Below, piece by piece: positions 2,566 to 58,794 of a stretch of DNA of 64,000 nucleotides. Below the pieces are notes generated by a model that was given only the letters and a program-made list of their open reading frames with translations, did not search any database and was not told where the DNA came from. Both the position numbers and the translations under genes were made by a program. Source of the DNA: Okamejei kenojei (Eukaryota); the NCBI GenBank assembly GCA_035221665.1, contig CM069150.1, positions 9,362,001 to 9,426,000 on the forward strand, given 5' to 3'. Each line of letters opens with the position of its first letter. Within the stretch, counting starts at the first letter, position 1.

Positions 2566-3296
2566 CATGACCGGACTTTACCTTGCACTAAACGTTATCC
2601 ATGTTAATCCCTTTATCCTGTATCTGTACACTGTGGATGGTTTGATTGTAATCGTGTATTGTCATGTTGCTGACTGGGTAGCAGGCAACAAAAGCTTCTC
2701 ACTCTGCCTCCGTACGCGTGAGAATAAACTAAACGCAAACTCCTTCATTCAATGTTCTCCACCAATCTCCTGCCCCATCGGTGACCACCCAAACTGCCCG
2801 GTTCTGCACCACACCACTGCTGCGTGTGTTTCCATCTTGTATAACCCTGTCATACCCTTCCTGCAACGTACACTGCACCTCAACACTGCCCCGACTGATG
2901 TTGGGAACTTCTGGCACATCCACCTAGCTGCTATTTTCAGCGGCTCAGCCACAAGAGTCTAGGATGCCTTCTTACCCAACTTGCTGGTTTGCTGTGTTGA
3001 GATGGCTGAACAAGTTCCTGTTCTCCACATTCCTCTGCATCCTCCCATTAACCTACTCACCTCACCTCACCTCCCCTTCCCCGTGGCAAAAATTGATCTC
3101 AGATGCCCATGCAAAGTGGAAGCTCCTTACATATTACTGCTTTGTCAATGCACATCCTGGCAATGACAAGAACACCAGACATCCACGGTCCTGTCCTTCA
3201 CCTTCTGGCAGCCAGTGTTGAGATTGGTCTCAAAACTGTCATCTCCCAGCTGCACCTCAGACTGCTCGGGAGAAGAGTCAGTGATCCACTCAAAAT

Positions 3297-3535
3297 TAGA
3301 CACAAAATGCTGGAGTAACTCAGCGGGTCAGGCAGCATCTTGGGAGAAAAGAAATAGGTGTCGTTTCGGGTCGAGGCGCATCTTCAGACTTCCCTCCTGC
3401 AATCAGAATGAAAAAGGGCCTCAACCCGAAATGTCATCTACTCCTTTTCTCCAGAGATGCTGCCTGACCCCGCCGAGTTACTCCAGCATTTTGTGACTAT
3501 CCTTGGTGTAAACCAGCATCTGCAGTTCCTTCCTA
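3297..3535. mobile_element. Palindromic Penelope-derived mini-element (type A)
   Basis: tagacacaaaatgctggagtaactcagcggg... and its reverse complement ...gagttactccagcattttgtgacta, with a decayed hammerhead core on each arm. Confidence 0.8.
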
Positions 3536-3949
3536 ACCATTAAACTGTATCTAGCTTGAGAGTCCAAAACTCACGGTTGAGTTAACGTAAGATTCCTTCA
3601 TCCTTAATTATCTATGGAGCTAGGCAAAAGGATCATCAACATTCTTCAGTGGAGTCTGTATTACTGACAATCCATCAATTGATTGTTCACAAATTGTTCT
3701 CAGGACAGCTAACGGGACCATTACTTCAGCCAGCTTTGCATTTGCTCAGTGTTAAATATTCCAATATATATTCTGCATTAATGCGATGGAATTAGCAACC
3801 TGGACAGGACCAAAATACGCCCAGCACCCAGGCATCACTCGACCAGCATCATTTAGACCAGCAGATGACCCAGTTGCTGCCGTCTAACAGGCTGAAATGC
3901 ACAACCAGATGAGCACGGATCAGAGCTTCCTGCCTTAGAGACCCCAGGG

Positions 3950-7661: not shown

Positions 7662-7860
7662 ATAGACACAAAACACTGGAGTAACTCAGTGGGACAAGCA
7701 GCATCTCTGGATAGGAGGGAATGGGTGACATATCCAAGGGCCTAGATCCAAAATGGCACCCATATTCCTTCTATCCAGAGATGCTGCCTGTCCCACTGAG
7801 TTACTCCTGCATTTTGTGTCTATCTTCGGTGTAAACCAGCACCTGCAGTTCCTTCCTACA
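7662..7860. mobile_element. Palindromic Penelope-derived mini-element (type A)
   Basis: atagacacaaaacactggagtaactcagtgggaca paired with tgtcccactgagttactcctgcattttgtgtctat. Confidence 0.8.
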
Positions 7861-8274
7861 CTCCACTCCCTCTATTTATCTCAATACATGGATTGTCATC
7901 AGAGCCAGACACGCAACAAATAAAAGCAACATTCATAGACTATGCAAATGGCTGCAACGTTCATACTAAAGGATAAGGAGTCAAAACTAAAAGCACTCAG
8001 CATTTTCTCCTTCTATCCATTGATCAACAACATCTACAAGTGTCTGGGCTGTGAAGAGATATTCGGCTGAACAACAAAAGTTAATAAAGGCACTCTCCTC
8101 TCAAAAAGATTTTAAACCACTGACCCATTCCAAACAAATCTTGACCATTCTTTTTTACAGAAAGCAGGTGAGCTCAGGAGCCTCTCGCTAATGCTGGGCT
8201 TGAGAAGGGACTGCAATGAACGCCGTCTCCAGTAGGTGGTGCGATTGCTCCAATGTACCTCCTCCATCACTGTA

Positions 8275-9054: not shown

Positions 9055-9789
9055 AGCCTGAAATTCAGCAGGCTGTGCGGAAGTTAACCAGAAAATGCTG
9101 GAAATACTCAGCAGGTCAGGCAGCCTCTGTGGTCAGTGAAAAACGATGAATGTTTCAGGTAGATGGATGAGCAGAGGGAATGCCTGCGAAGAAGGAGAGA
9201 CCCAGGTGAAACGAGATGACGGGTGGCAATGGTGTTGGTGGAGAGAAGGTGTGAGACTTGTGAATCACAGCGGATCCACTGGAAAGACTGCAAATAGAGG
9301 GGGAGTTGCAAGGAGGGGGAAAACAAACCAAATTGTAGATTTTGCCAAAAGCCAAAAAACACCAAAAAATACTGGAAATTTGATCAGGTAGGATCAGTGG
9401 GGAGAAAGCAATGTCGGAATTTGTGGACTTCTCACCAGAATGGGTGTTCTAACACAAACTGGACAGGCTGATTCTGTCTGAAGAAGGGTCTCAAACTGAA
9501 ATGTCACCCATCCCTTTTATCGCGAGGTACTGCCTGACCCGCTGAGTTACTCCAGCATTACGTGTCTATCTATCGACAGGCTGGTTACCTGGAATTATTG
9601 AATCGTGTTGAGCCATGGATTGGAACGCAATTCCAGCAGTCTGTGTTAGTTCAAGTTGCCCGCAGGAGTGTGAGTTCCCTTTCTCTCTTCTGCCCTCATG
9701 GACCTCTCTTTATTTACACCTTTTCCAATGCCATGGCAACGGTGTGTGTTTGTGTGATCTGGTTTCCACCTATCTCATTCTCTTTCCAC

Positions 9790-10195
9790 CCTTCTGGCGT
9801 GCGTGGCTGTCGACTGGGAACGCAGCCGAAGGTCTCGATCGAGGTGCCGTGGCCTCGCGGGTAGAAGCTTGGGTCGGGCGGAGCGGCTGGAGCCCAGGTC
9901 GCTATCACGGAGGCGTGAAGTGGAGCGTCGTCCGCGACGATGGGGGCTTGCGGCGGTGGCGATGAGAGCGTGGAGGACCACCGTGGGGGGGGGGGGGGGG
10001 GGGGGGGAGGAAGGGGACGAACTATGGAGGACCTGGCCTGGGGGACTGTTGTGGTGAATGGGGGGGGGGAACAAAAGGGGGAGCCGGCGTGCTTTGTAAC
10101 TTTATCAGTGCCGTAGGTGGCTGCTATTTGTATACATTGTGTATGCAAGCAAAGAATCTCACTGTGCCTAGTCATATGTGACAATAAAGTATTCC
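9790..10195 (+). mobile_element. GC-rich non-autonomous non-LTR-like element with AATAAA tail
   Basis: CpG-rich body with an internal poly-G run, then tgtatgcaagcaaagaatctcactgtgcc...tgacaataaagtattc, typical of LINE-dependent 3' ends. Confidence 0.5.
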
Positions 10196-10599
10196 TCCCA
10201 TCTGAAATATTGAACGCACATGTTTTCTTACTTTGTCCAGTTCTGACAGAAGGCCTTTGCCAGAAACATTAACCTTTTTACCCTCCTCACAGATGCTACC
10301 TGATCTGTGGGGTGTGTTTTATTTTGGATCACCAGCATGTGCATGTTTTTAATTTTTATAAACAGGACACAGTTATGCAGCATTATTTAGTAGGTTGGAT
10401 GGCCTCTGGCTGTTTAACATCATTGTATTATTCGACATTGTAAAGGCGGGAAACAAAGCAGCCATTGCATTGATCAGAGCAGCACCGGGGCCTGTCACTG
10501 TTCTGGCAGAGAGGTACTGGACCGCAAACCTGCGACAATGTTCCTCTGCCCCAACTGTGCCTTGGGATTTGCTTACATCCACCTCAACCGGATGATCCT

Positions 10600-14822: not shown

Positions 14823-15152
14823 GACTATGGACTATGGACAAGTTTGCACTGTCTGGCTGACACCCTGACAGTCTGCTTACATAGTATAACTAATTTATTG
14901 TGTTATCGTGTATTCATTTGTTGCATTGAGCAGTTAATACGCTAGTAAAGCTGCACTAAGTAAGTATGTCATTGTTCCTGTCCAGACACACACAACAATT
15001 AAACGCTCTTGACCACACTCTGGGATGACCCAGCAAGTAAGGGGATACTTCAGCTCACAAAGTATCCTATTCATTGACTTCAGTTGGGATTTCAACTCTG
15101 GGCTCAGTGTTCAAAGTCCCTGTAGGATGTAGGTTTTAGACAGGCATCTTAC

Positions 15153-15307
15153 CGACTGCAGGTTGCCTTCTTGCCTTCGCATTTGGCTCTGTCTGGTGAT
15201 TAGCGATCTTGTGGAGAGTTTGTAGTGGTTGAGGAGGCAGGTGATCACCACTACCATCACTATCATCACCAGCACTATCACGATTATCTGCACAAACTCC
15301 AGCTCAG
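15153..15307 (-). CDS. PMEPA1: Transmembrane exon (155 bp) of the same PMEPA1-family gene
   Basis: Encodes [51 protein letters not shown]. Acceptor ttctctttctgtgttgcag|CT (phase 1) and donor TCG|gtaaga (phase 0). Confidence 0.92.
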
Positions 15308-15477
15308 CTGCAACACAGAAAGAGAAGGGCAACGTGAGACACTGCAGGGAGACAACCGGGAAAAGCTCACCGACCGATGGACACGTCATGCCAGAGAATA
15401 ACTCTACATTCATCACAAGGCACCACCCACGTCACAAGCACCTTCGAAGCTGGCGGCATCGACCTGGCTTACATAGC

Positions 15478-15725
15478 AGTACGGTACTGGTGGGCACAGG
15501 TCTCTCACTGTAGAACACTGGGTACAGTCCTCATGGGGACAGGTCTGTCACTGTGGAACACTGGGTACAGTCCTCATGGGGACAGGTCTGTCACTGTGGA
15601 ACACTGAGATACAGTCCCGATAGAGATGAGTCTGACACTTTACAATGCAATACAGTACTGGTAGGGATGGATCTGTCACTATTACAGTGCAGCTCAGACT
15701 GGCGAGGAAGGGTCTGTCACCTGTG
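15478..15725. repeat. 43-bp minisatellite, about 5 progressively decayed units
   Basis: Unit acaggtctgtcactgtggaacactgggtacagtcctcatgggg starts at about 15497, 15539 and 15582, followed by degenerate copies. Confidence 0.85.
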
Positions 15726-16027
15726 GTTGGTACAGAACTGCTTTGACAAGGCACAAAGAATCACTCAAGGTGTGACAGGTGGACTCGGAGTCCATGAGAG
15801 CAGCAGATCCCAGGAGCAGGTGGAAATTGGGGGGGGTAAAAAGAAATGAAATGCTGGAAATACGAGTCAGGTGGCATTTGTGGAGAACGAAACAATTAAG
15901 ATGAAGAAAAGATTGAAGCAATTACAGGATAAAAAGGGAGGAAAAGATTAAGTAATAGAAGAAATAATTACAGATAAACAATGGGTTAGAAATAAAAATG
16001 GGAAGAGCAGAATTATAGAAGTTGGTC

Positions 16028-16532
16028 ACAGACATACAGCACAGGCACACGGCACAGACACAGACACACACACAGACACACACACAGACACAGATGTACA
16101 CACAGACACAGATGTACACACAGACACAGATGTACACACAGACACANNNNNNNNNNNNNNNNNNNNNNNNNNNNNNNNNNNNNNNNNNNNNNNNNNNNNN
16201 NNNNNNNNNNNNNNNNNNNNNNNNNNNNNNNNNNNNNNNNNNNNNNNNNNNNNNNNNNNNNNNNNNNNNNNNNNNNNNNNNNNNNNNNNNNNNNNNNNNN
16301 NNNNNNNNNNNNNNNNNNNNNNNNNNNNNNNNNNNNNNNNNNNNNNNNNNNNNNNNNNNNNNNNNNNNNNNNNNNNNNNNNNNNNNNNNNNNNNNNNNNN
16401 NNNNNNNNNNNNNNNNNNNNNNNNNNNNNNNNNNNNNNNNNNNNNNNNNNNNNNNNNNNNNNNNNNNNNNNNNNNNNNNNNNNNNNNNNNNNNNNNNNNN
16501 NNNNNGACACAGACGTACAGCACAGACACACA
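16028..16532. repeat. ACACAG / 18-bp (acacacagacacagatgt) simple repeat spanning the assembly gap at 16147-16505
   Basis: Tandem units are visible on both sides of the N run. Confidence 0.9.
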
Positions 16533-16534
16533 TT

Positions 16535-16840
16535 CAGGTCATCAGGCCACTGAATCCATACTGACCAGCTAACACACAGCTTTATTGTCCCCATATTCTC
16601 ATCTATTCCCACCAGGTTTTAACCCACCTCGATTCTCCCACTACCCACCTACATTAGGGGCAATTTACAGTGACCAATTAACCCATCAACTTGTACATTT
16701 TTGGGATGTGTGAGGAAACTGGAGAGCCATGGGAGGTCCCGTATGGTCACAGGGTGAATGTGTGAACTTCATGCAGACATTGGCAGAGGTTGGTATCGAA
16801 CCTGGTTGACAGGAGCAGTGAGACAGTGACTCTGCTGGTC
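16535..16840 (-). mobile_element. Decayed V-SINE/HE1-like SINE
   Basis: ggggcaatttacagtgaccaattaaccc...tttgggatgtgtgaggaaactggag...gtcacagggtgaatgtgtgaact. Confidence 0.6.
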
Positions 16841-16997
16841 CACAAGGCAGCTTGGTGAACGGTGAGAGCTCAGGTCACACTTCACTGCCCAAGCGAAGAG
16901 GCCAAGGGCAGGCAGCTGCAGAGAACCAGGACAGGTGAACAAATAGCAGGCTGTGGGTAGGCGTCCCATACAGGGGGTCTACATTTGGGTGGCACGG

Positions 16998-17029
<32 letters not shown>

Positions 17030-18030
17030 GATAGATGTGCAGGCAGCAAGTTGAGCTACATCAGAAGCTATTGTGTGAAGGCAAGGGGCTGTGGGTCTCA
17101 CCCCAGTAGATGCAGCATCTCTTCAGGCTGTTGAAGTTAAGGTTGGGGGGGGGGGGGGGGGAACGGGACCCTTTAGCTGATTCTCATCACTCTCCCACTG
17201 ACAGCCATGCCCATAGTTGCCCAAATGCAAAAAAAAAAAAAAAAAAATCCTCCCTGACCTTCTCTCTTTTCACGCGACTACTCCTTTTGACCAAAGCACT
17301 TTAAATGCGACAGGGTTAAGTTTTGTCGGATGTGACTGGGAAGGCCAGCCTTTGTCCTTCATCGCACCGTGTTGGCAAACCAGCGCCTGCCTTCCTTCCT
17401 TCCTCTGAAGCTCCAAAGTGTTCGCTACGTTTCACTTTGGAATGGTTCAGAAGCGGTGAGTGTAAAACGAGTTGGGGAAGAGGCAATTCATTGATAACAT
17501 TTCAGTTCGTGGTTATTTAAACTACGATTGTCCTGAACAAAATGGAGGAAAAGCTTTCACATGCATGAAGCAGTCACCAAGAATAAACTTAGAACCTGCC
17601 TGTCCAGACAGTTCTTGGTTATTACATTAACAAAGTGACAGTGCTAGAAGTAGTCAGTGAGGCTTGTAAAAGCCCTCATCAAGCGGGGATGTGTGGAGAA
17701 TGGAAAATGGCGAGCCACACACACACACATTCACGCACACTTGAACCCAGTAGCTTACACACAAAATCAAAACTCAGTGGGGTGCAGTTTAAAAGCATAC
17801 GAGGAATTGTAGCAGCACCTTAGCCCAGTGACAGTGTTTAAGCCTTTTCCCAGTCCCCTCTCTCTACCCCCCACGTCATCGATTCATTGCAGTACAGGAA
17901 GGAACATCTCATTCAGGCGCAGAGCGAAAGTTAACAGTGGGGGGTTTCAAGGACCCCACTAACACATTCCTTCTTCAAATCAGGGATTCTTTTTCAATAT
18001 GTTAAAAATGGTCAGAAGGCACCCCCTCTT

Positions 18031-18069
<39 letters not shown>

Positions 18070-19100
18070 ACCAACCCCCCCATCATCATCAACCCCCTCC
18101 CTGAAGCTAAATGACGATCGTTCTTGTTCTTTAACTGCTGCCACCCCAGGCGTGTGGCTTCACTGAGACAGCCGGGAGCAGGCCGGCCGGCAGACAGACA
18201 GGCAGGAGGGGCGGGCTCGAGGGCAGTCCGGCAGTCAGCACTACATCAGGCATTCACATCATGAAGCGTAACCAAGCACTCCTCTGGCTGGGGGCTGGCC
18301 TGGGCTACACATGATGGATTTTGACACTGAAGTTTGGGTCAGCTCGTCTGGAGATTGGCAAGGGGGGTGGGGAGGTGGATGCAGACAATTTGCTGCTGCT
18401 TTGCACATCATTATATTAGAAGCGAGTCCCAGCGAGGTCTGGAGACGGCGGCGTGAATGCAGATAGGAGGGGGATTGAACCGCTGTCTCGGGCACAATGA
18501 GCGATCCAAATCAAGGCCATACTTAGTGGGACTAAATTGTCACCTTGTGCCCTGACAGCAGTCGATAGAGCCAAGAGAGCCTGGCCCATCATGAACACAG
18601 CCCACACTGTACAAGGGTAGCTGCAAAACCCTCAGCTGCCACACCGACTCAGGCAAGCACGCCGTTCATGACCCTCGCTCTGTCAGTAGGACAGTCCCCA
18701 GACTAGGGCTGCCTGTTCTGTCGGCACGCATTCAACCAGTGCAGCCCACCCCACCCTAAACATTCCCTTGGCTTAAACATTCGAATTAGAGACTAGCAGC
18801 ATGGCAGTTCATTATATAGTTGTGGGCGTCCTGGCCAAAATTCACCTTTACAAGTATCAGCAGATCAGACTGGTGGCTGGCAGCATTTCACACAGCAAAT
18901 ATAACCACAGATGTTAAGCACTTCAGGATGTCCTGAATTCAGGAAATGAGCACCCCCCCCCCCCCCCACCCACTGATATAAAACCTATGGGGGGGGGTGG
19001 GAGATGGATGGGTGAGTGAGTGGGAGGGAAACTTGGAAGCATGGGGGAAAAAAGAGGTTTCACATAAGACTAGTGTAACTGGAGTGAAATAGTTGGCATG

Positions 19101-22066: not shown

Positions 22067-24323
22067 CATGCAACCATATGTTCCTTTCATCTTTCTCCTG
22101 GAGATAAGCACACTTGCCCGATTCCACCCAGCCAATAATTTCACTGCCCAGTTTGGGCAATGGGTTTAATTTGCTCCTCCTCCGCTCTCCATGCCACGGA
22201 CGACTGGAATGGGTTTTCACTTGGGCAATAAAAATACAGAAGAGAAAAGGGGAAAAGAAAGAAATAAAAAAAAGACAAAGAAAGAGAAGGAAAAAAAAAA
22301 GACAGAGGCTACAGGAGAGAATGAAAAGGAGAGAGACTGAAATCCTGCCCTATCCACTCTAACAGTGGGACTTTCAAAGGCTGATGTGTGCTCAAAACAT
22401 TAAAAACTGTTATGACAAACAATAGCCATCCACGGCTTACCCAAAACGATCCCATTACTCTGCACTCCCACAGCTGTCTGAGCAGCATGCAAACATCAGG
22501 TATTAAAACCTTAAACCGTCTGAATTTTATGAAAATCTAATCTGGGTTAATGATGGCTTTCTATGTGGCGCGACGGTGGAGAGAGCTCATTTACATTCTG
22601 ACGATCAGTTCCCTGCTGACTCACTTTTGGCTGGGCCCACACATTAATTTATCCTCCGTCTCCCCAAGCAGACACTTCCTCCGACCAGCTCGCTGCGTTC
22701 CGGCAAAGGATTCTGGAGATTTCACGGAGCGCGGGTTAAAGTGGCTTCGGGGGACATTACACCCTGCTAGCGACGGTGAAAGTGGAACTTTACCTGCCGG
22801 TACCGCACAGCACCAACGATCCAACAACGCACAATGGAACGGAACAAAAGCAGCTCTCATAATATTCACAGCATATAGTCTTTTCATCATAGTGAGTGAG
22901 GGGCCTTTAAATGTACATCAACCTGCTCAGGTACCTCCAGGGGTGGATTTTCACAGGGCTGGTTAAACTCAGAAAGTTGCAACAGCCTCTTTTGACCCTA
23001 GCATGATAATTTTACTAATTGGCATTTTGATTGCCGTGGAGAAGTCGGGAACATGGAGGAACACAAAAGATTCAGTCCAAAGATAGTTTTAGTTGCCAGA
23101 GTGTAGAATGCTCAGCACTCTTCACCTCCAAATAATTGTTCCCCATTACTTAGTTCAGAAAATAAAAAATGCGCACAGCTGGGGGTTTATGCTAGAAGTT
23201 AGCCCACAGTTGGAGCATGGGTTCTGGTCATAATATCACAGGAGAGATATAGGAATGTGCTGGAGAAGGGTTGGAGATTTATTAGGATACAGTTAGTTTA
23301 GGAAAATTGTTGCCGTTAAGATTGGATAGGCCAGGATTGTTTTCTTTACAGAGGATGATGGAGAGGAGAGAGAGCGAGAGAGCGAGAGATAATTAGAGTA
23401 TGTAAAAAAATTAATTATGAAGGGCTTCCATCATCTTCTTAGAAATCCCGTGGGTTTTGTGGGTAAGCTAATGAGGCCAATGTGGGAAGAGTAGACTCTG
23501 CCACAGCTGGGCTGGGCTGGGCTGGGGTTTGTGAGTTTGTGCAGAGCCTCCGTGCGCTCTCTGTGCATAGATCGGACGTTCTAATCACCGCCCTGGACTG
23601 TCACCCCTCCACTTTGAGTGGTAATGAGCGAGAGGGGGTCAAGCCGGTGAATAGGAAGGACATTTTCCTTAGCCCAAGGGTCAAATACAAGGGAAACATT
23701 GATATAATGCGATTTGAAGGAAGATTAGAGGGGAGAGCAGGCAGTGTTTTATTTTAACACACAAATTAAAAGATGTGGTAGGAGGTATGTGGAACTCTGC
23801 CCGAGAGTGTGGTACAGGCAGTAATTCCCACCGTACTTACATGGTTCCTGGGTATGTATTTGCAGAGCTGTGATCTGGAAAGCCACAGACCCAGTCTCCA
23901 AAAGGTGGGATTAAGCCGGGTGCCTTATTTTTTTAAATTTCTCAGACGCAATGGCCTGTGAGGCAAATAGAGCCATAGAGTCATCCAGCACAGAAACGGC
24001 CCTTCATGTCCAGGCTGTAGCCCAAGTACCCATCTACGCTAATTCCATTTACCAGCAGTGGACTGTGCAACTCCAATCCATATCTCACTGATCCATTCTA
24101 ACAGAGGGGAGTGTTTACCCCTGCAGCCAGCTCTTCACATGCAACGCAAGAAGACCATGCAGCTTGAGGGGGTTAGGCCGGACCCAGCGCATTACTTAAT
24201 TTCTGATTGGATTCTATCACCTGCATTGCATCAAAGCTCACCTGGACACAGAAGAACAAAGGGATGGTGCTATGGGCTTGTGCACTGCTAAAGAACAGCA
24301 GACCTACATTTGTGTAGAAAGGA

Positions 24324-24507
24324 ACAAAAAGCTGGAGTAACTCAACGGGTCAGACAGCACCTCTGGTGAAAAGGAACAGGTGACGTTTCTGGTCGAGACC
24401 CTCCTTCGCACCTGAAGAAGGGTCTTGACCCAAAATGTCACCTGTTCCTTTTCTCCAGCGATGCAGTCTGACCCGTTGAGTTACTCCAGCTTTTTGTGTC
24501 CATCTTC
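24324..24507. mobile_element. Palindromic Penelope-derived mini-element (type A)
   Basis: Near-perfect inverted arms caaaaagctggagtaactcaacgggtcagac and gtctgacccgttgagttactccagctttttg. Flanked by the duplicated sequence cagcagacctacattt (24296 and 24507). Confidence 0.85.
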
Positions 24508-24581
24508 AGCAGACCTACATTTACCTTGCTTCTTCCTGAATAAGAGACTAGATCAAAACACTCACAGACAATTGGGTAGTT

Positions 24582-36300: not shown

Positions 36301-37001
36301 TATTTATACAACGTTGTTCAATGGGTCGCAAATAGATTCCAGACACGTGCTTTTCCTTTGGGACAGATTACAGACTGCACGCAACACTGCAACAAGGTAG
36401 TGCCTATCAGGGTTGTAAACTGTACCAGGCAAAGAGCACCTGCCTCAGTGCGTTATGCTCCTCTGAAGGGTCTCATTACTGGGATCCCAGGAATACCTTC
36501 CCCACAGCTGAAGACAGCAGCATTTGAGATCAGATGTGTCACGTAAACTTGGTAGACAAACCCTGGTTTCTCTCTGCAGTGAAAACATCCAGCGAGGTCT
36601 ATCAGCAGCTGACAGAGGACGATCGCAGTTTTCCATGCCATCTTACACCAGCCTTAGGGCTGCCCCAACTGCTTTCCACCCATTGAGGTTGGCCCACTGT
36701 TGCAGTTGGGAATTGCAGAAGCCAACCAAAGAATGGAGAAGCTTTAACAGCCACACAAAGAAGCAATTATTCATCAGTTTCGTACGATCTTTCACACGGA
36801 TCCTTCGGCCCACCGAGGGATAAACCAACATCTGTGCGTCTCGTCTTAGTGACACAGGTTGAGGGAGAAGTATTTACCAAGGCAGAGGGAATTCCCTGCT
36901 CCTCTTCCAATAGGTAATTTGTGTCCAGATGAGATGACACTTTACCACCTCATCTGAAAGAGAGCGAGTCTCCAGCCGCATACATTAGCCCTGATCATAT
37001 A

Positions 37002-37513
37002 AGTGGGGTTGGGCTGGATTTGGCGCTGGCTGTAGGTCTGTGGGTTGTGCGTGCTGCCTGCGGGCCAGGGGCCACTGGTGTCGTCAGACGGCACTGTCAG
37101 TTGGCGTGGCGGGGGAGGTGGAGGTGAGCTGGGGTTGGCGCTCCTCCGCACTGGAGGCCCGGATGTCCCTGGCCGCCTCCCCGGGCAGGGATGGGACACT
37201 TGTGTGTGTGTGGGGGGGGGGGGGAGACCAGGGACAGTCCGGCGGTGTTTCCGCAGCGCTGGAGACACGGGTTTGACATGGAGCCGGTCGTTTCCCCCCC
37301 ACACTGAAAAAGATAAAGACCCAAACTATACGCACCAAATCTACAGCCCTTAGTTTGATTTTTATTTATAGCGTTCGACCTTTGACAAATCCCATGATTC
37401 CTTGCGTTTTTCGGAATACCGAACTCGCTTATACTGTACTGTCAACAAAGTCATCTTTTGGATGAGGCCATAATTCAAGGCCCCCTTGCCTTCTAAGATG
37501 GACAATCAAAGAA
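37002..37513. repeat. Diverged partial copy of 38648-39172, flanked by 42-bp direct repeats
   Basis: Collinear from agtggggttgggctgga to gatggacaatcaaagaa. Flanks 36959-37000 and 37515-37556 differ at one base. Confidence 0.9.
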
Positions 37514-37961
37514 GAGAGAGCGAGTCTCCAGCCGCATACATTAGCCATGATCATATTGAATGCGAGGGCAGGATTGAAGTATCTAGTGGCTGCCTCCTGC
37601 TCTTTTATTTGTGTCCTTGCAACGTATCCCTCAGGATTTTCAAGCCACAAAGCCAGCCATTAAAATAGTCTGTTGTAAAAATGTACTCAAGCAGGACCAA
37701 TTTTCATCCTTTAAACCTGTTATTGGGCAAGGTCTACCGCAGCCACCGACTTCCCTGACCCAGCCTTTGAAGCCAGACTGTGTTGGCAGGACAGGCAACC
37801 TGTACGGTGCTGCAGGCAAGGCAAGGCAAGACCTTGCTTGGTCAGCTGCCACTCAATGTGGACCGCTTATCTCATCAGTTTTAAAATCAGGAGTTTACCC
37901 ATTCCAGAGATTTCAGCAGCTGCACAGGTTTGAGTGGCCAAGCATTAAGGGATTGTTGTCA

Positions 37962-39104
37962 CTAATTCATTACCTCCACCAATTAAAAGTGCAATTAAAA
38001 AAAACTCACACCATTAAATATTTTACCTTAAACATTTGAGTCAGCGTCTACATTATTATCTAGCGTTTTGTCCGTCGGATCTCCGTCACTCTGGCCGCTG
38101 TTGAGTTGCTGCTGGGCCGTCCCCTTCCAGGTGTCCCGTCCCTGTCCGGGGTGGCCCTGGGCAGGCAAGATGGGCAGCCGCCGGCCCTGCTCGAAGACGG
38201 GCGACTCGGAGCCGCTGCTGCTGGAGTCGTCCTGGTCGGAGAGACCGACCGCGGTCTCTCTCTCCGAGGCGCCCGTCTTCGAGCAGGGCCGGCCATGGGC
38301 AGGCCGGGCGTGCACTGGTGGTGGGGCTGGCAGCAGCAGCAGCAACCTCCTCCCCCTCCCTTGCCCAGCCCCAAGTCCGGGCCAGCTCCAACTCCAGGTC
38401 GGGGCTGAAGACCACCCGCAGAGCGGCACCGAGCCAGAGGCTGGCGCAGGTGAGGCCAGGGCCCTCGCTCCTCCTCGGGGTTGTGCATGAAGTGGCAGCG
38501 GGTAATGTTGGGGCAGCAGCTGGTGGTGTGCAAGCTACGGCTTGTACTTGGGGTGGCGACTGAGGGAGCGCAGCTCGGCCAGGCCGTGGGCGAACTGGCA
38601 TTCGTCGCCGTGGCGACCCATCGGGGAGCGGGTTCCTCTGGAGTTGGAGTGGGGTTGGGCTGGAGTTGGCGCTGGCTGTAGGTCTGTGGGTTCTGCCTGC
38701 GGGCCTGGGGCTGCTGGTTGCGTCGGGCGGGGCTGCTGGTTGGCCCGGCGGGAGAGGTGGAGGTGAGCCGCGGTGGGCCTGGGGCCCGGTGTCCCATCGG
38801 TCAGGACGTCTCCGGCCACTCCCCGGGCAGGGATGGGACACCCGAGTGGTGGGGGGGGGGGTGTAGGAAGACCAGGGACGGCCCAGTGGCGGTTCGGCAG
38901 CACTTGTAGCGTTGGGGACACGGGTTCATGCCGGTCCAGTCTCTCTCCCCCCCCCCCCCCCACTGAAAAAGACAAAATAAATCAGACCCAAACTAAACTC
39001 ACCGAATCTACAGCGTTTCGTTTGATTTTTATTTATAGCGTTCAACCTTTGACAAATCCCATGATTCCTTGCGTTTTTCGGAATACCGAACTCGCTTAAA
39101 ACTG
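37962..39104. mobile_element. Unclassified ~1.14 kb insertion carrying ZFP36-family fragments
   Basis: Interrupts the SINE; TGTTGTCA occurs at both junctions (37954-37961 and 39105-39112); AT-rich ends around a very GC-rich core. Confidence 0.55.
38166..38700 (-). pseudogene. Scrambled, frameshifted ZFP36/ZFP36L1/ZFP36L2 (TIS11/tristetraprolin family) fragments
   Basis: Across frames: HGDECQFAHGLAELRSLSRHPKYK (end of finger 1 plus linker), RSLHTTSCCPNITRCHFMHNPEEER (decayed finger 2, with TELC deleted and a frameshift) and LSDQDDSSSSGSESPVFEQGRRLPI (C-terminus up to the start of the CNOT1-binding RLPIF motif). Confidence 0.9.
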
Positions 39105-40074
39105 TGTTGTCATCTTTTGGATGAGGCCATAATTCAAGGCCCCCTTGCCTTCTAAGATGGACAATCAAAGAACCAATTGCAATATTTTTTCTAAATTACC
39201 ACAAGGAAACTTCCCTAGTGCCCAGGTTAATATTCATCACTCCTATCCCTTCACAAAACTGATCCCCTGGACATTCCTACTGCTGTTTATGGGCCTCTGC
39301 TGTAGCTAAAACACCTTGATTCAGACAACACAACCGCAGCCACAATCTCAGACGTTCTGATGGCAAACAGCTTAGGTCAACTTGGAAGTGTAAAGAAAGC
39401 TAAATAGATTCTGCCATTCACGCATCCAGAATTCACATACAACCAGCAAAAATGTAAGAATATTAAACATTCAACAATTTTTCCCCAAAAATGCTCATTT
39501 CAATTCTGCGATTTTGTTTATGTACTGCTTCCTGTCACCCTAGAGCACAGAGCTGCGGAAGCCAGCCAGGCCAGGCGGTGTGTAATAGTCTACATGTCGC
39601 CTACGCATGGTGGGTTTATTTTTATGAAAACAAGGACAAATAGTGAATCTTATCTCAAGTGGTATGCAAATTTAAAAAGACATTTTGGGCTTATTTAAGT
39701 TTCTATACAAGGCAGTGCAGTTATATGCTGATTAACAACAACATTCTCTGAAGACGTGTCACTTCATGAGACAATGAGCCGGTAATTTGATTTTTGCTGT
39801 GTTTTACATTAATACTGTTTAGCTTTAAAGTATCAAATTGCAGTGCAGGATGTATTTAAACGAGCAAGGAGGTGGCATGCAGTTTGGCAATGTACTTGAA
39901 GGGTTGCGCACAGAATACACGTGGTGATGTACAGAAATGAATTTATTGACCCATTCACATGTAACCAGTACCTTCCCCCTCATTCTCCTGTTGACTGAGA
40001 GTTTACAGTAGATTGCAGTTCGAATCACCCCACCAGAGGATGGATGTGACTGCACTGGAGTGACGGCTACTTGG

Positions 40075-42189: not shown

Positions 42190-42223
<34 letters not shown>
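42188..42223. repeat. (CA)n microsatellite
   Basis: Visible run. Confidence 0.95.
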
Positions 42224-42226
<3 letters not shown>

Positions 42227-42227
<1 letters not shown>

Positions 42228-42858
42228 GGCCCCGTCCCACTTGCGTGTCCTTGGCTCGCAAATTACGTGGTTGTGTCGAGGCATACGGGCATCGTGTGGC
42301 CGGTCCCGCTGAGAAGCGCGGAGGGGTATGGAGTTGTGCGAGGTATTACGCGGCGCTCTGAAATTTTGTAGCAAACTAAATCTTTGCGCGCCACCGGCCC
42401 GTCGCGTAACTGACGGCCAAAGTGGGACAGGCCCAAGACCCTGGCGCGACGCAACGTCTCACCTCCAAGCAGCAGCAGAAGCAGGCAAACGATCGCCGAG
42501 CTCAGTATGGGGCTCACGGCCGTTGCGGATCCGGATCCGGATCCGCCCCCACTTCTACTCCCAGAGCGGGGCCAAGAAAATTGAAGATAGACACAAAATG
42601 CTGGAGTAACTCAGCGGGACTGGCAGCATCTCTGGAGCGAAGGAATGGATGACGTTTCGGGTCAAGACCCTTCTTTCAGACTGACTGCCCGCTGAGTTAC
42701 TCCTGCATTTTGTGTCCATCTTCAAATGACGTCACGCGCTCCAGAAGGTTGTGTGGGCGCATGAAGTCACCCGCGACCTTCGCGGAACCGTTGCGGCTCA
42801 ACGCAACCACAAGGTCACGTAATTAGCATGCCAAGGACACGCAAGTGGGACAGGGGCT
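42227..42858. mobile_element. PIF/Harbinger-like non-autonomous element with a nested Penelope-derived palindrome (about 42586-42723)
   Basis: 29-bp TIR aggccccgtcccacttgcgtgtccttggc / gccaaggacacgcaagtgggacaggggct; TAA at 42224-42226 and 42859-42861. Confidence 0.8.
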
Positions 42859-43107
42859 TAACTTATGTTGGCAGACAAGATGCGACCATCAAAATCCAGG
42901 ACTTCCAATTGGAAACAATCCCACGGGTGGGTTTGGGAACTACAGCATTCATTTAAATAGTGCCTTTAACCTTGCAACCAAGCTGACTTACTGCAGAATT
43001 ATCAAACAAGGTTACACCAAGCCACATCGCCACACATTAACTCAAGCAACCAAAGGGTTGGTCAAATAAAACAGGTCAAGAAGCAGTTCAAAATATGTAA
43101 GAAAAAA

Positions 43108-43320
43108 CTATAGATGCTGGTTTAAATCGAAGGTAGACACAAAATGCTGGAGTAACTCAGTGGGGCAGGCAGCATCTCTGGGTGTCGTGCGCAAGAATGG
43201 GTGACGTTTCGGGTCGAGACCCTTCTTCAGACCGATGGTTCTCTACCCGAAACTTCACCCATTCCTTCTCTCCAGAGATGCTGCCTATCCCGCTGAGTTA
43301 CTCCAGCATTTTGTGTCTAC
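43108..43320. mobile_element. Palindromic Penelope-derived mini-element with an intact minus-strand hammerhead core (43203-43230)
   Basis: gtagacacaaaatgctggagtaactcag paired with ctgagttactccagcattttgtgtctac; core gacgtttcgggtcgagacccttcttcag. Confidence 0.85.
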
Positions 43321-43604
43321 CAGCATTTAAAAATAGATGGGGAGATTACTCTGCAGGTGTATATGGAGTGGGGTGACACGGACAGGTTGCTGCCAAGAGT
43401 CAATGTACAGAAACACCCTATCCTCAATGTTTAGATTACAGGTGTAATAAAGTACAGGGCTTACAAAATATTAACACTTTTGTTTTAACCTGCAAGATCA
43501 ACCAAAGTGGAGTTGTACTTAAGACAAAGTCAACAGGAATATTTCCCAATGAAAGGTTTTACTGGAAGCCAACTATGCTTGTTATGCAAAAATCATGCTC
43601 CTTA

Positions 43605-47394: not shown

Positions 47395-48457
47395 TTCAGC
47401 TCCGCCTTTAACACTGTCATACCCGCTAGCTTGATCACCAAACTCAGCGGTCTTGGCATCTCCACTTCCCTCTGCAACTGGATACTGGACTTCCTCACTA
47501 ACAGACCACAGTTAGTCCTGGTCTGTTAGTGAGGAAGTCCAGGTCCCTCAACACCTCCAAGCTGATCAAAAAGGCGCAGCAGCGCCTTTACTTCCTGAGG
47601 AGGCTCAAAAAAGCCCACCTGTCCCACCTGATCCTGACCAACTTCTACCGATGCACCATTGAAAGCATCCTGACCACCTGCTTTACGGTATGGTACAGCA
47701 GTTGCACCGTAGCAGACAGGAAGGCACTACAACGGGTGGTGAAAACCGCCCAGCACATCATCTGTGCCCCGCTCCCTGCCATGGATGCCCTCCACCGAAA
47801 ACGGTGTCTGAGACGCAGAGATGCCAACCCTAAATTTAGTTCACAGTAACATTCAACCCATTTGTCCGTAACAAATGGGGGTAAATGCATTTCTCTCCCC
47901 TGGTGCAGATGCGCAGTGCGGCACTAGCGAGGCTGGCGGCAAGAAACGTCGCCGTGTCGCTGATCGCGCGGGCCGGCGCCGCCCGGGCTCTGGGCCGGGT
48001 GTGGCTGCAAGCTGGCAAACCGGGGGCACATGGCGCCGGCGTTCACCACGGGAGGAACACCGGCGCGGCGGTGTTCCGTAACAACACGTTTGGCTGCCGG
48101 AACACCGTAATATGGTCGCCGGGACAAAAATACGGCGAATCCGGGACACTTGGCACCTCTGGAGACGGGCTGGGAAGAACATCAAGGACCCCTCCCACCC
48201 TAACCATGGACTGTTTGCCCTCCTACCATCGGGGAGGCAGTACAGGAGCCTCAGGTCCCGCACCAGCAGGATGAGGAGTAGCTTCTATAATAACACCATC
48301 GCACTGCTGAATTCAGAGTCCCGCCGATAGATTTCCACACCTGTATTTATTTATCTGTATTTACCTATATATTGCTATCACTTCATACTGTCACTAAACT
48401 GCATTTCGTTGTACCCATACTTGTATCTGTGCAATGACATTAAAGTTGAATTGAATT
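47395..48457 (+). mobile_element. Rex1/Babar-like LINE 3' portion (internally deleted, interrupted by a MITE)
   Basis: [30 protein letters not shown]; KKAQQRLYFLRRLKK..FYRCTIESILT..WY..KALQRVVKTAQHI; DPSHPNHGLFALLPSGRQYRS..SF; tail attaaagttgaattgaatt. Confidence 0.9.
47816..48161. mobile_element. hAT-like MITE nested in the Rex1 element
   Basis: TIR cagagatgccaa / ttggcacctctg; gagacg duplicated at 47810-47815 and 48162-48167. Removing the element restores the Rex1 frame RCLRRAGKN. Confidence 0.85.
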
Positions 48458-58212: not shown

Positions 58213-58380
58213 TGTCCGCTGATGCCCTCAGCTCGGACTGGGTACCTCTGTTCTGCACAATTCACTGTTACACAGCATTGAAATTTGATAGGGAGGGAAA
58301 GATGGGTTTGAATTGCTGCAACGGTTCAACCTGCAATACCATGGACCAGCACATTTCACTGCAAAACAAGCAACGTCAAA

Positions 58381-58567
58381 GATAGACACAAAAAACTGGA
58401 GTAACTCAGCAAGACAGACAGCATCTCTGGAGAAAAGGAATGAGAATAGTGAGACCCGAAACGTCACCTATTCCTTTTCTCCAGAGACGCTGTCTGACCC
58501 ACTGAGTTACTCCAGTTTTTTGTGTCTATCTTCAGTTTAAACCAACATTTGCATGTTCCTTCATACA
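58381..58567. mobile_element. Palindromic Penelope-derived mini-element (type A)
   Basis: gatagacacaaaaaactggagtaactcag paired with ctgagttactccagttttttgtgtctatc. Confidence 0.85.
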
Positions 58568-58794
58568 CAAGCAAAGGCAAGGGCTGGTTTGTAAAAGGCA
58601 GCGGAGGTTCAATTCCACAGCCAGTCTATTGAATGCACCCTGAAGGTGTGATTCACACCAAGGGTTGGTTTAGCAGAGAGGGTTGGCGCAGTGTCAGACT
58701 CACAGTAAACTCCACAGCACTCTGCATTCTACACAAGTGATTGTCCACAGGCCCATGACCACCATTGGCCAACTGTGTTCTGGACATAGCTAGA

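Follow-up and report, generated by a model that had tools for sequence, protein, structure and literature searches.

The locus and its features

The window analyzed here, a stretch of 64,000 nucleotides from the skate Okamejei kenojei, holds on its minus strand the last and the transmembrane exons (369-971 and approximately 15130-15308) of what we take to be a PMEPA1/LDLRAD4-family gene, and no first exon of this gene was found upstream within the window. Just upstream of the transmembrane exon, at 15491-15720, are 43-bp and 41-bp tandem arrays. Elsewhere, a short, often palindromic repeat family is represented by more than 20 copies, several of them as inverted pairs (copies include 1125-1264, 3290-3540, 7662-7861, 24313-24508, 43090-43331, and 58376-58568), CpG-rich islands occupy 9601-10200, 42201-42600, and 47801-48200, and the translation of 47502-47849 is presumably the end of a LINE reverse transcriptase. 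The segments 37870-37961 and 39105-39200, both single-copy at 80% likeness, resemble what we assume to be two parts of an old Deu-domain SINE. Between them lies the subject of this work, a non-coding, Helitron-like element of 1,040 bp on the plus strand (38059-39098; here copy 1), whose limits were taken from the depth profile, from contig ends, and, on the left, from comparison with a Leucoraja protein, and whose right end may lie a few bases further, out to about 39104. No tandem array was seen at the locus and no tRNA was found; the 6 miRNA-family matches returned by Rfam lie on G/C tracts, all far below gathering scores.

From left to right, the element is laid out as follows. A putative 5′ terminus and left arm (38059-38127, plus strand) starts with TC at 38059-38060, behind an A at 38058, and the bin 38075-38159 is at repeat depth. 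The captured ZFP36-family fragment (38166-38621, minus strand) covers donor residues 119-281 and is antisense to the proposed orientation of the element. It is followed by a GC-rich, indel-rich right interior of unknown origin (38622-38962), which gave no tblastn match at E<1e-3 among 153 proteins, and by an AT-rich, CpG-rich, conserved right terminus (38963-39098, plus strand) with a hairpin at 39077-39090 and CTTA at 39095-39098. The hairpin is present in both copies of the terminus at this locus (fold z -3.77, reached by 0 of 200 shuffles, in a window chosen after looking), and the minus strand of the terminus carries a TATA-like box at 39037 and a GT..AG pair running from 39002 to 38963. 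One candidate for the GC-rich interior, a ZFP36 N-terminus behind a splice acceptor, passed 20 mononucleotide shuffles and was rejected on dinucleotide shuffles, of which 8, 25, 54, and 55 of 100 reached the N-terminal alignment scores.

An earlier note on this DNA had the ZFP36 block bounded by inverted repeats of about 27 bp. Such repeats are indeed present (38130-38156 and 38814-38842; 29 columns, 86%, a score reached by 1 of 300 shuffles), but they do not bound the block, since both arms are internal to the element and the right one lies some 190 nt beyond the ZFP36 sequence. The left arm adjoins a deletion private to copy 1. Also private to copy 1 is a 32-bp inverted duplication of 38180-38211 at 38262-38293 (97%), which replaced donor residues ~246-255. 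The claim that the captured sequence lies sense to the PMEPA1-family transcript holds as regards the strand, which is that of the 2 exons; that it lies inside the transcript is likely, with no upstream exon found in the window.

Depth, dispersal, and the ends of the element

Contigs from 4 of 24 public read runs were aligned to 37480-40000 at 80% likeness. Three of these runs (X1, X6, and X9, from organisms A, B, and C, with 3 species labels) are whole-genome-like, and the fourth, marked “RNA?”, is probably DNA. In X1, X6, and X9, depth is at a single-copy level of ~17-30 on 37650-38074 and 39180-40000, and the transition falls between the bin 37990-38074, which is single-copy, and 38075-39094, which is at repeat level. 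Expressed as summed depth, which is not a copy number and is inflated in bins with simple repeats, the non-repetitive finger position 38559 reads 8812, 4358, and 11748 (299-, 261-, and 394-fold single-copy) and the bin 39010-39094 reaches 2,100-6,000 times single-copy. The other allele at 38559 is carried by 70, 63, and 54 contigs in X1, X6, and X9. The ZFP36-bearing element is present in dozens of variants at least, and probably in a few hundred copies, and we regard it as very likely that this is a multi-copy carrier of ZFP36 sequence.

The same profile redraws the boundaries. The earlier note had the element run from 37962 to 39104 with AT-rich arms; because 37962-38074 is single-copy in the 3 whole-genome-like runs, the supposed left arm is flank, and the element is 38059-39098. 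The larger span went with a Pack-type reading, i.e., a cut-and-paste element (Pack-TIR, for example a hAT with an 8-bp duplication) filling 37962-39104, and here the occurrence of TGTTGTCA at 37954 and 39105 would fit, as would the GC-rich cargo, a property of multicopy Pack-TIRs (PMC8277862). However, while TGTTGTCA does occur beside both of the proposed junctions, it abuts neither terminus, being 97 and 6 bases off, it occurs 5 times in the window, and its presence on both sides is at chance level: when two 150-bp windows were drawn at random 5000 times, the pair had an 8-mer in common in 29% of cases. Moreover, the terminal inverted repeat scores in copy 1 were reached by 163 and 253 of 300 shuffles. 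Neither poly(A) nor a target-site duplication was found at the ends of copy 1; the absence of poly(A) and of a clear terminal inverted repeat stands as first described, and an ordinary processed pseudogene, for which the tail and the duplication are missing, is not supported. A Pack-TIR origin is highly improbable in our estimation, and the ends point instead to a rolling-circle element. The animal Pack-TIRs of Tan et al. (2021, PMC8277862) are alike in holding host sequence inside a DNA element and in capture by template switching, but they are mostly single-copy (even in frog, 3 of 23 are multicopy), and the skate element has neither the terminal inverted repeat nor the target-site duplication; the main text of that study mentions neither ZFP36 nor shark.

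Dispersal is seen most directly at the right end. Behind 39098, 394, 427, 346, and 48 contigs in the 4 runs stop and continue into unrelated AT-rich flanks, with an agreement among loose ends of 0.36-0.41. The loose ends start with T in all 4 runs, and their consensus (TTGAAAT, TTGTAAT, TTGAAAT, and TTCTAAT) hints that the true 3′ end may lie a few bases beyond 39098. These sharp ends belong to all elements with that terminus and not to the ZFP36 carriers alone. Contigs that share just the last 54 bp and differ left of 39045 with one consensus (81, 97, 60, and 28; agreement ~0.6) are a further, abundant subfamily that shares this terminus. At the left terminus, no pile of loose ends was found among the rows listed, and the bin 37990-38074 is almost without extra depth; unrelated flanks are documented in 346-427 contigs per whole-genome-like run at the right end and in 2 copies at the left.

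For the ZFP36 carriers themselves, the junction between the fragment and the interior (38620) is bridged, with at least 31 letters on each side, by 14 of the 30 contigs listed, beyond which there were 10,416 further pieces. Each of these differs from the reference by 11-50 letters, which means that the capture junction is common to other copies and that these are old and diverse. None of the contigs listed joins ZFP36 to the right terminus without a break (the furthest reaches 38778), let alone to the flank, which is what one might expect if the ZFP36 copies were a tandem or segmentally duplicated pseudogene family merely containing a common repeat end. Against such duplication, copy 1 is isolated, with single-copy sequence on either side, the Leucoraja copy considered below diverges right at the TC, and the bridging contigs are as old and diverse as just noted; we consider it very improbable.

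The left end itself offers further detail. Together with its flank (38020-38091) it forms a weak direct repeat of 39031-39093, at a score reached by 0 of 300 shuffles in windows chosen after looking, and this is possibly the relic of an older neighboring terminus. A further possibility, that the left end is a minus-strand CTAG 3′ end, was rejected: the sequence does not form a stable hairpin at that place, since 172 of 200 shuffles fold equally well, and CTAG would call for Leu at a residue that is Gln in the Leucoraja copy. Exact terminal patterns found no match in viral contigs or prokaryote genomes, and the one 23-bp match in metagenomes was put down to chance.

The ZFP36-family fragment, its donor, and a little-skate copy

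In a frameshift-aware alignment, the minus strand from 38621 to 38166 is collinear with residues 119 to 281 of the 289-aa Rhinoraja protein XP_078287002.1 (P0001), across 4 frameshifts, and 24 of the 25 C-terminal-most aligned residues are identical. The minus-strand remnants of CCCH fingers and C-terminal segment reported in the earlier note are therefore present, and frameshifted, but neither finger is whole: of finger 1, the last Cys and His alone remain, and the first Cys of finger 2 is gone. The region between finger 2 and the C terminus, described as shortened, is barely so, with 290 nt versus 321 nt when measured against the right donor. With its 4 frameshifts and 1 stop, the copy 1 fragment cannot encode a working protein. 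An in-frame ATG at 38621, derived from the element, precedes it. The deletion adjoining 38130-38156 removed the ZFP36 stop codon from copy 1. At this point, 30, 33, and 38 contigs continue past 38167 into the ZFP36 C terminus and stop codon (by hand translation), and behind 38244, 32, 30, and 33 contigs leave the reference with donor-like sequence that translates to the donor’s missing middle residues. Since the loose ends at 38167 and 38244 encode what copy 1 has lost, both the deletion and the inverted duplication are private decay.

Among 160 proteins, the one that scored highest against the fragment in tblastn was P0003, the Leucoraja model treated below, with 172.5, followed by P0001 with 167.5, P0002 with 126.3, and the next with 122.1, so that P0001 is the top full-length gene. 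Its group within the ZFP36 family, made up of short elasmobranch proteins, also includes sequences from Narcine, Scyliorhinus, and Chiloscyllium. The donor is, by sequence likeness, a short elasmobranch ZFP36-family gene of this kind, comparable to XP_078287002.1 of Rhinoraja, XP_069765398.1 of Narcine, and XP_072346360.1 of Scyliorhinus. Donor group and fragment share diagnostic C-terminal motifs, the batoid clade has support of 97/99, and the group is without the Tis11B_N domain that a fish ZFP36L1 has. A 14-row tree (14 of the 160 proteins) did not place the donor among the ZFP36 paralogues, TTP versus a fourth paralogue. ZFP36 genes presumably have one large coding exon, within which the fragment falls, and so the capture may have been from DNA or from RNA.

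A search with the junction peptide brought up, as the one protein among 3 candidates, the Leucoraja erinacea model XP_055493223.1 (P0003), located on an 88-Mb sequence. It is frameshifted and begins with Met-Gly exactly at the capture junction (24 of 27 residues identical). Moreover, its residues 202-232 match 38123-38034 (15/31, E 6e-6 on a 181-bp subject), and so the left arm is common to both species as well. Codon-level likeness then stops on the codon covering 38060-38058: the summed distance is 3 over 6 codons, a value that 3 of ~63,000 window positions reach, and the 14 codons that follow sum to 22, where the random average is 23.9, in an end-alignment window chosen after looking. This places the left end at A|TC, position 38059, on the evidence of 2 copies, the Leucoraja one known through its translation. 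A search with residues 55-243 of P0003 recovered only P0003 itself among 3703 candidates, so 1 annotated sister copy was found. The NCBI protein-coding “ZFP36-like” model XP_055493223.1 is this frameshifted sister copy and probably mis-annotated transposon cargo. With a core that is high-copy and not single-copy, and with junction and left arm shared by Leucoraja, the central proposal of the earlier note, a mobile element with captured and multiplied ZFP36 sequence, is supported.

Age, mode of transposition, and possible consequences

Copy 1 is older than the split between organisms A and B, and probably older than that between A and C. An organism B contig spans 37515-38166 and crosses the left junction, and an organism C contig runs from the right flank to 39073, which is 26 letters into the terminus and below the 31-letter rule; flank differences amount to 13/517 and 36/524, respectively. 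A second copy lies close by. Copy 2 (37001-37514, plus strand) comprises 37001-37431, which is the right half of a ZFP36-free member of the family, and 83 bp of flank, the last 64 bp of which are identical to the copy 1 flank at 39109-39172. It is flanked by a plus-strand 42-bp duplication, with the first copy at 36959-37000 and the second at 37515-37556 (41/42 identical). In X1, contig breaks fall at 37517 and 39144, where the copy 2 repeats predict them. In organisms B and C, copy 2 appears to be absent, since the alignment of their contigs ends at 37515 and leaves 108 and 159 letters unmatched. Part of the 42-bp duplication falls in 37480-37579, a segment with a depth of 15,000-18,500 and a common continuation behind 37579, which we take to be the 3′ end of an elasmobranch CR1-type LINE or SINE. 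An ORF across copy 2 gave no usable Atlas match.

Copy 2 is the least explained part of the locus. Its identity to copy 1 varies along its length (64/68, 170/245, 43/55, 80/83, 6/10, and 64/64), and of 6 positions tabulated for the family it has the majority letter at 3, with 2 of the misses in ambiguous alignment. That copy 2 preserves an older junction was rejected, as organisms B and C carry the copy 1 letters at 39106-39108. We infer that it arose as a repair-type templated insertion, with the synthesis switching between copy 1 and a different member of the family, which would best account for a young insertion whose middle looks old and whose local flank is perfect. The same copy bears on the notion that the whole family is a LINE-mobilized composite retroposon, 5′-truncated, copied through RNA, and ending at 39098. 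Copy 2 looks 5′-truncated and has both a 3′ flank and a 42-bp duplication, and the family’s depth peaks at the right end. However, its middle and flank differ too much in likeness to copy 1 (170/245 versus 64/64) for a simple read-through copy. There is, moreover, no poly(A) or tandem tail, loose ends agreeing at 0.36-0.41, the depth is not monotonic, with the ZFP36 part above the interior to its right, and copy 1 ends without a duplication. We regard retroposition of this kind as quite unlikely.

On balance, copy 1 is probably a decayed copy of a non-autonomous rolling-circle (Helitron-type) element carrying the 3′ half of a ZFP36-family gene. Helitrons of the HLE1 variant begin with TC at the 5′ end, carry a 3′ hairpin followed by CTRR, and insert between A and T, and their right ends vary less than the left ones (PMC11417382). 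In the skate element, TC is present at 38059-38060 (in 2 copies; it was not seen family-wide in the reads) and the hairpin at 39077-39090, and the right end is common to far more copies than the interior, as in HLE1. Insertion between A and T would fit the A at 38058, the T that follows the end family-wide, and the lack of an end duplication, but copy 1 itself has an A at 39099, and an empty site for it did not turn up. The canonical CTRR is not found, the shared sequence ending in CTTA, and no autonomous partner was seen; the label used is therefore “Helitron-like”, and the element is not filed as a Helitron member. Against the Helitron reading stands also the 42-bp duplication around copy 2, which rolling-circle insertion does not make. 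The host group and variant are right: in the HELIANO survey (Table S10, PMC11417382), HLE1 is the sole variant and occurs in 4 of 8 chondrichthyan genomes, with 11,154 predictions in Leucoraja erinacea, and both Amblyraja Repbase Helitrons in Table S1, Helitron-1_AmRa and Helitron-2_AmRa, are HLE1. These skate HLE1 families are a likely source of transposase, and Repbase or Dfam may already list the present family with no mention of its cargo.

A Helentron-type carrier (HLE2/HINE), with sub-terminal inverted repeats and a TT target, would imply the same capture and amplification. The stem-loop 8 nt from the 3′ end and the loose ends starting with TT fit the description of HINE (PMC4067079), and the weak direct repeat between the 2 ends (again, none of 300 shuffles, with the window chosen after looking) is like the inner repeat of DINE-1. 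HINE and DINE-1 are also alike in a T-rich target without duplication and in subfamilies that share their last 60 bp (PMC4067079). The skate element differs in lacking their sub-terminal inverted repeats of 11-17 bp, the best inverted match between the ends of copy 1 (score 14) being reached by 253 of 300 shuffles, and in a left end that is A|TC and not TT; and HELIANO lists no HLE2 in the 8 chondrichthyan genomes (PMC11417382). We think this alternative unlikely.

For the Helitron-type reading, the history would run as follows. A small Helitron of ~600 bp would have taken up the ZFP36 segment once, in antisense, by template switching or read-through, before the split of these skate lineages, and an autonomous RepHel partner would then have spread the chimera, with no duplication of the target, over a few hundred sites, next to thousands of sister elements that would share the same last 55-85 bp and have other interiors. 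Copy 1 would have decayed thereafter by frameshifts, deletion, and inverted duplication, and copy 2 would be a later templated insertion of the repair type and not a normal transposition.

Gene capture of the Helitron kind is known from bats and maize. Among vertebrates, capture and amplification of coding fragments by Helitrons has been described in bats (Thomas et al. 2014, PMC4224331), and the vesper bat elements are similar in being non-autonomous and in carrying host coding fragments, sometimes in antisense (TMBIM4 in HelibatN217.1), with copy numbers in the tens or hundreds (for non-5′ genic regions, from 28 to 1,381). The skate element differs in its cartilaginous host, in the single cargo gene seen, in its CTTA end, and in that intact or selected copies are not evidenced. 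No report of ZFP36 capture or of skate Helitron cargo was found in the literature searched, outside of which most subscription papers lie, and Helitron is not mentioned in the passages of PMC12361510 that were covered.

As to function, the ATG at the junction shares its reading frame with the ZFP36 fragment in both skate species. Upstream of it, on that strand, are the TATA-like box, with what we take to be a ZNF143-like motif beside it, and the splice-like signals. Because TTP’s C-terminal domain binds Not1 without RNA binding (PMC3105394), a truncated ZFP36 family spread by a transposon, with no AU-rich RNA binding and a NOT1-recruiting tail, might by analogy act as deadenylation decoys, or sense and antisense RNA might tune the parent gene. 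We consider either role a long shot, and, if true, it presupposes that the frame is kept in some of the hundreds of copies. For more utilitarian purposes, primers, probes, and read counts for the 3′ half of the skate parent gene would be confounded. The finding would extend Helitron-type gene capture in vertebrates, documented mainly in bats, to the cartilaginous fishes, with a fragment of a single regulatory gene whose copy number would approach the upper limit of the range that bats show for coding cargo. A ZFP36 coding segment would also be available in a few hundred copies, dated and free to decay, in which it becomes testable whether any copy has been domesticated and whether small RNAs are directed against a regulator of mRNA decay.
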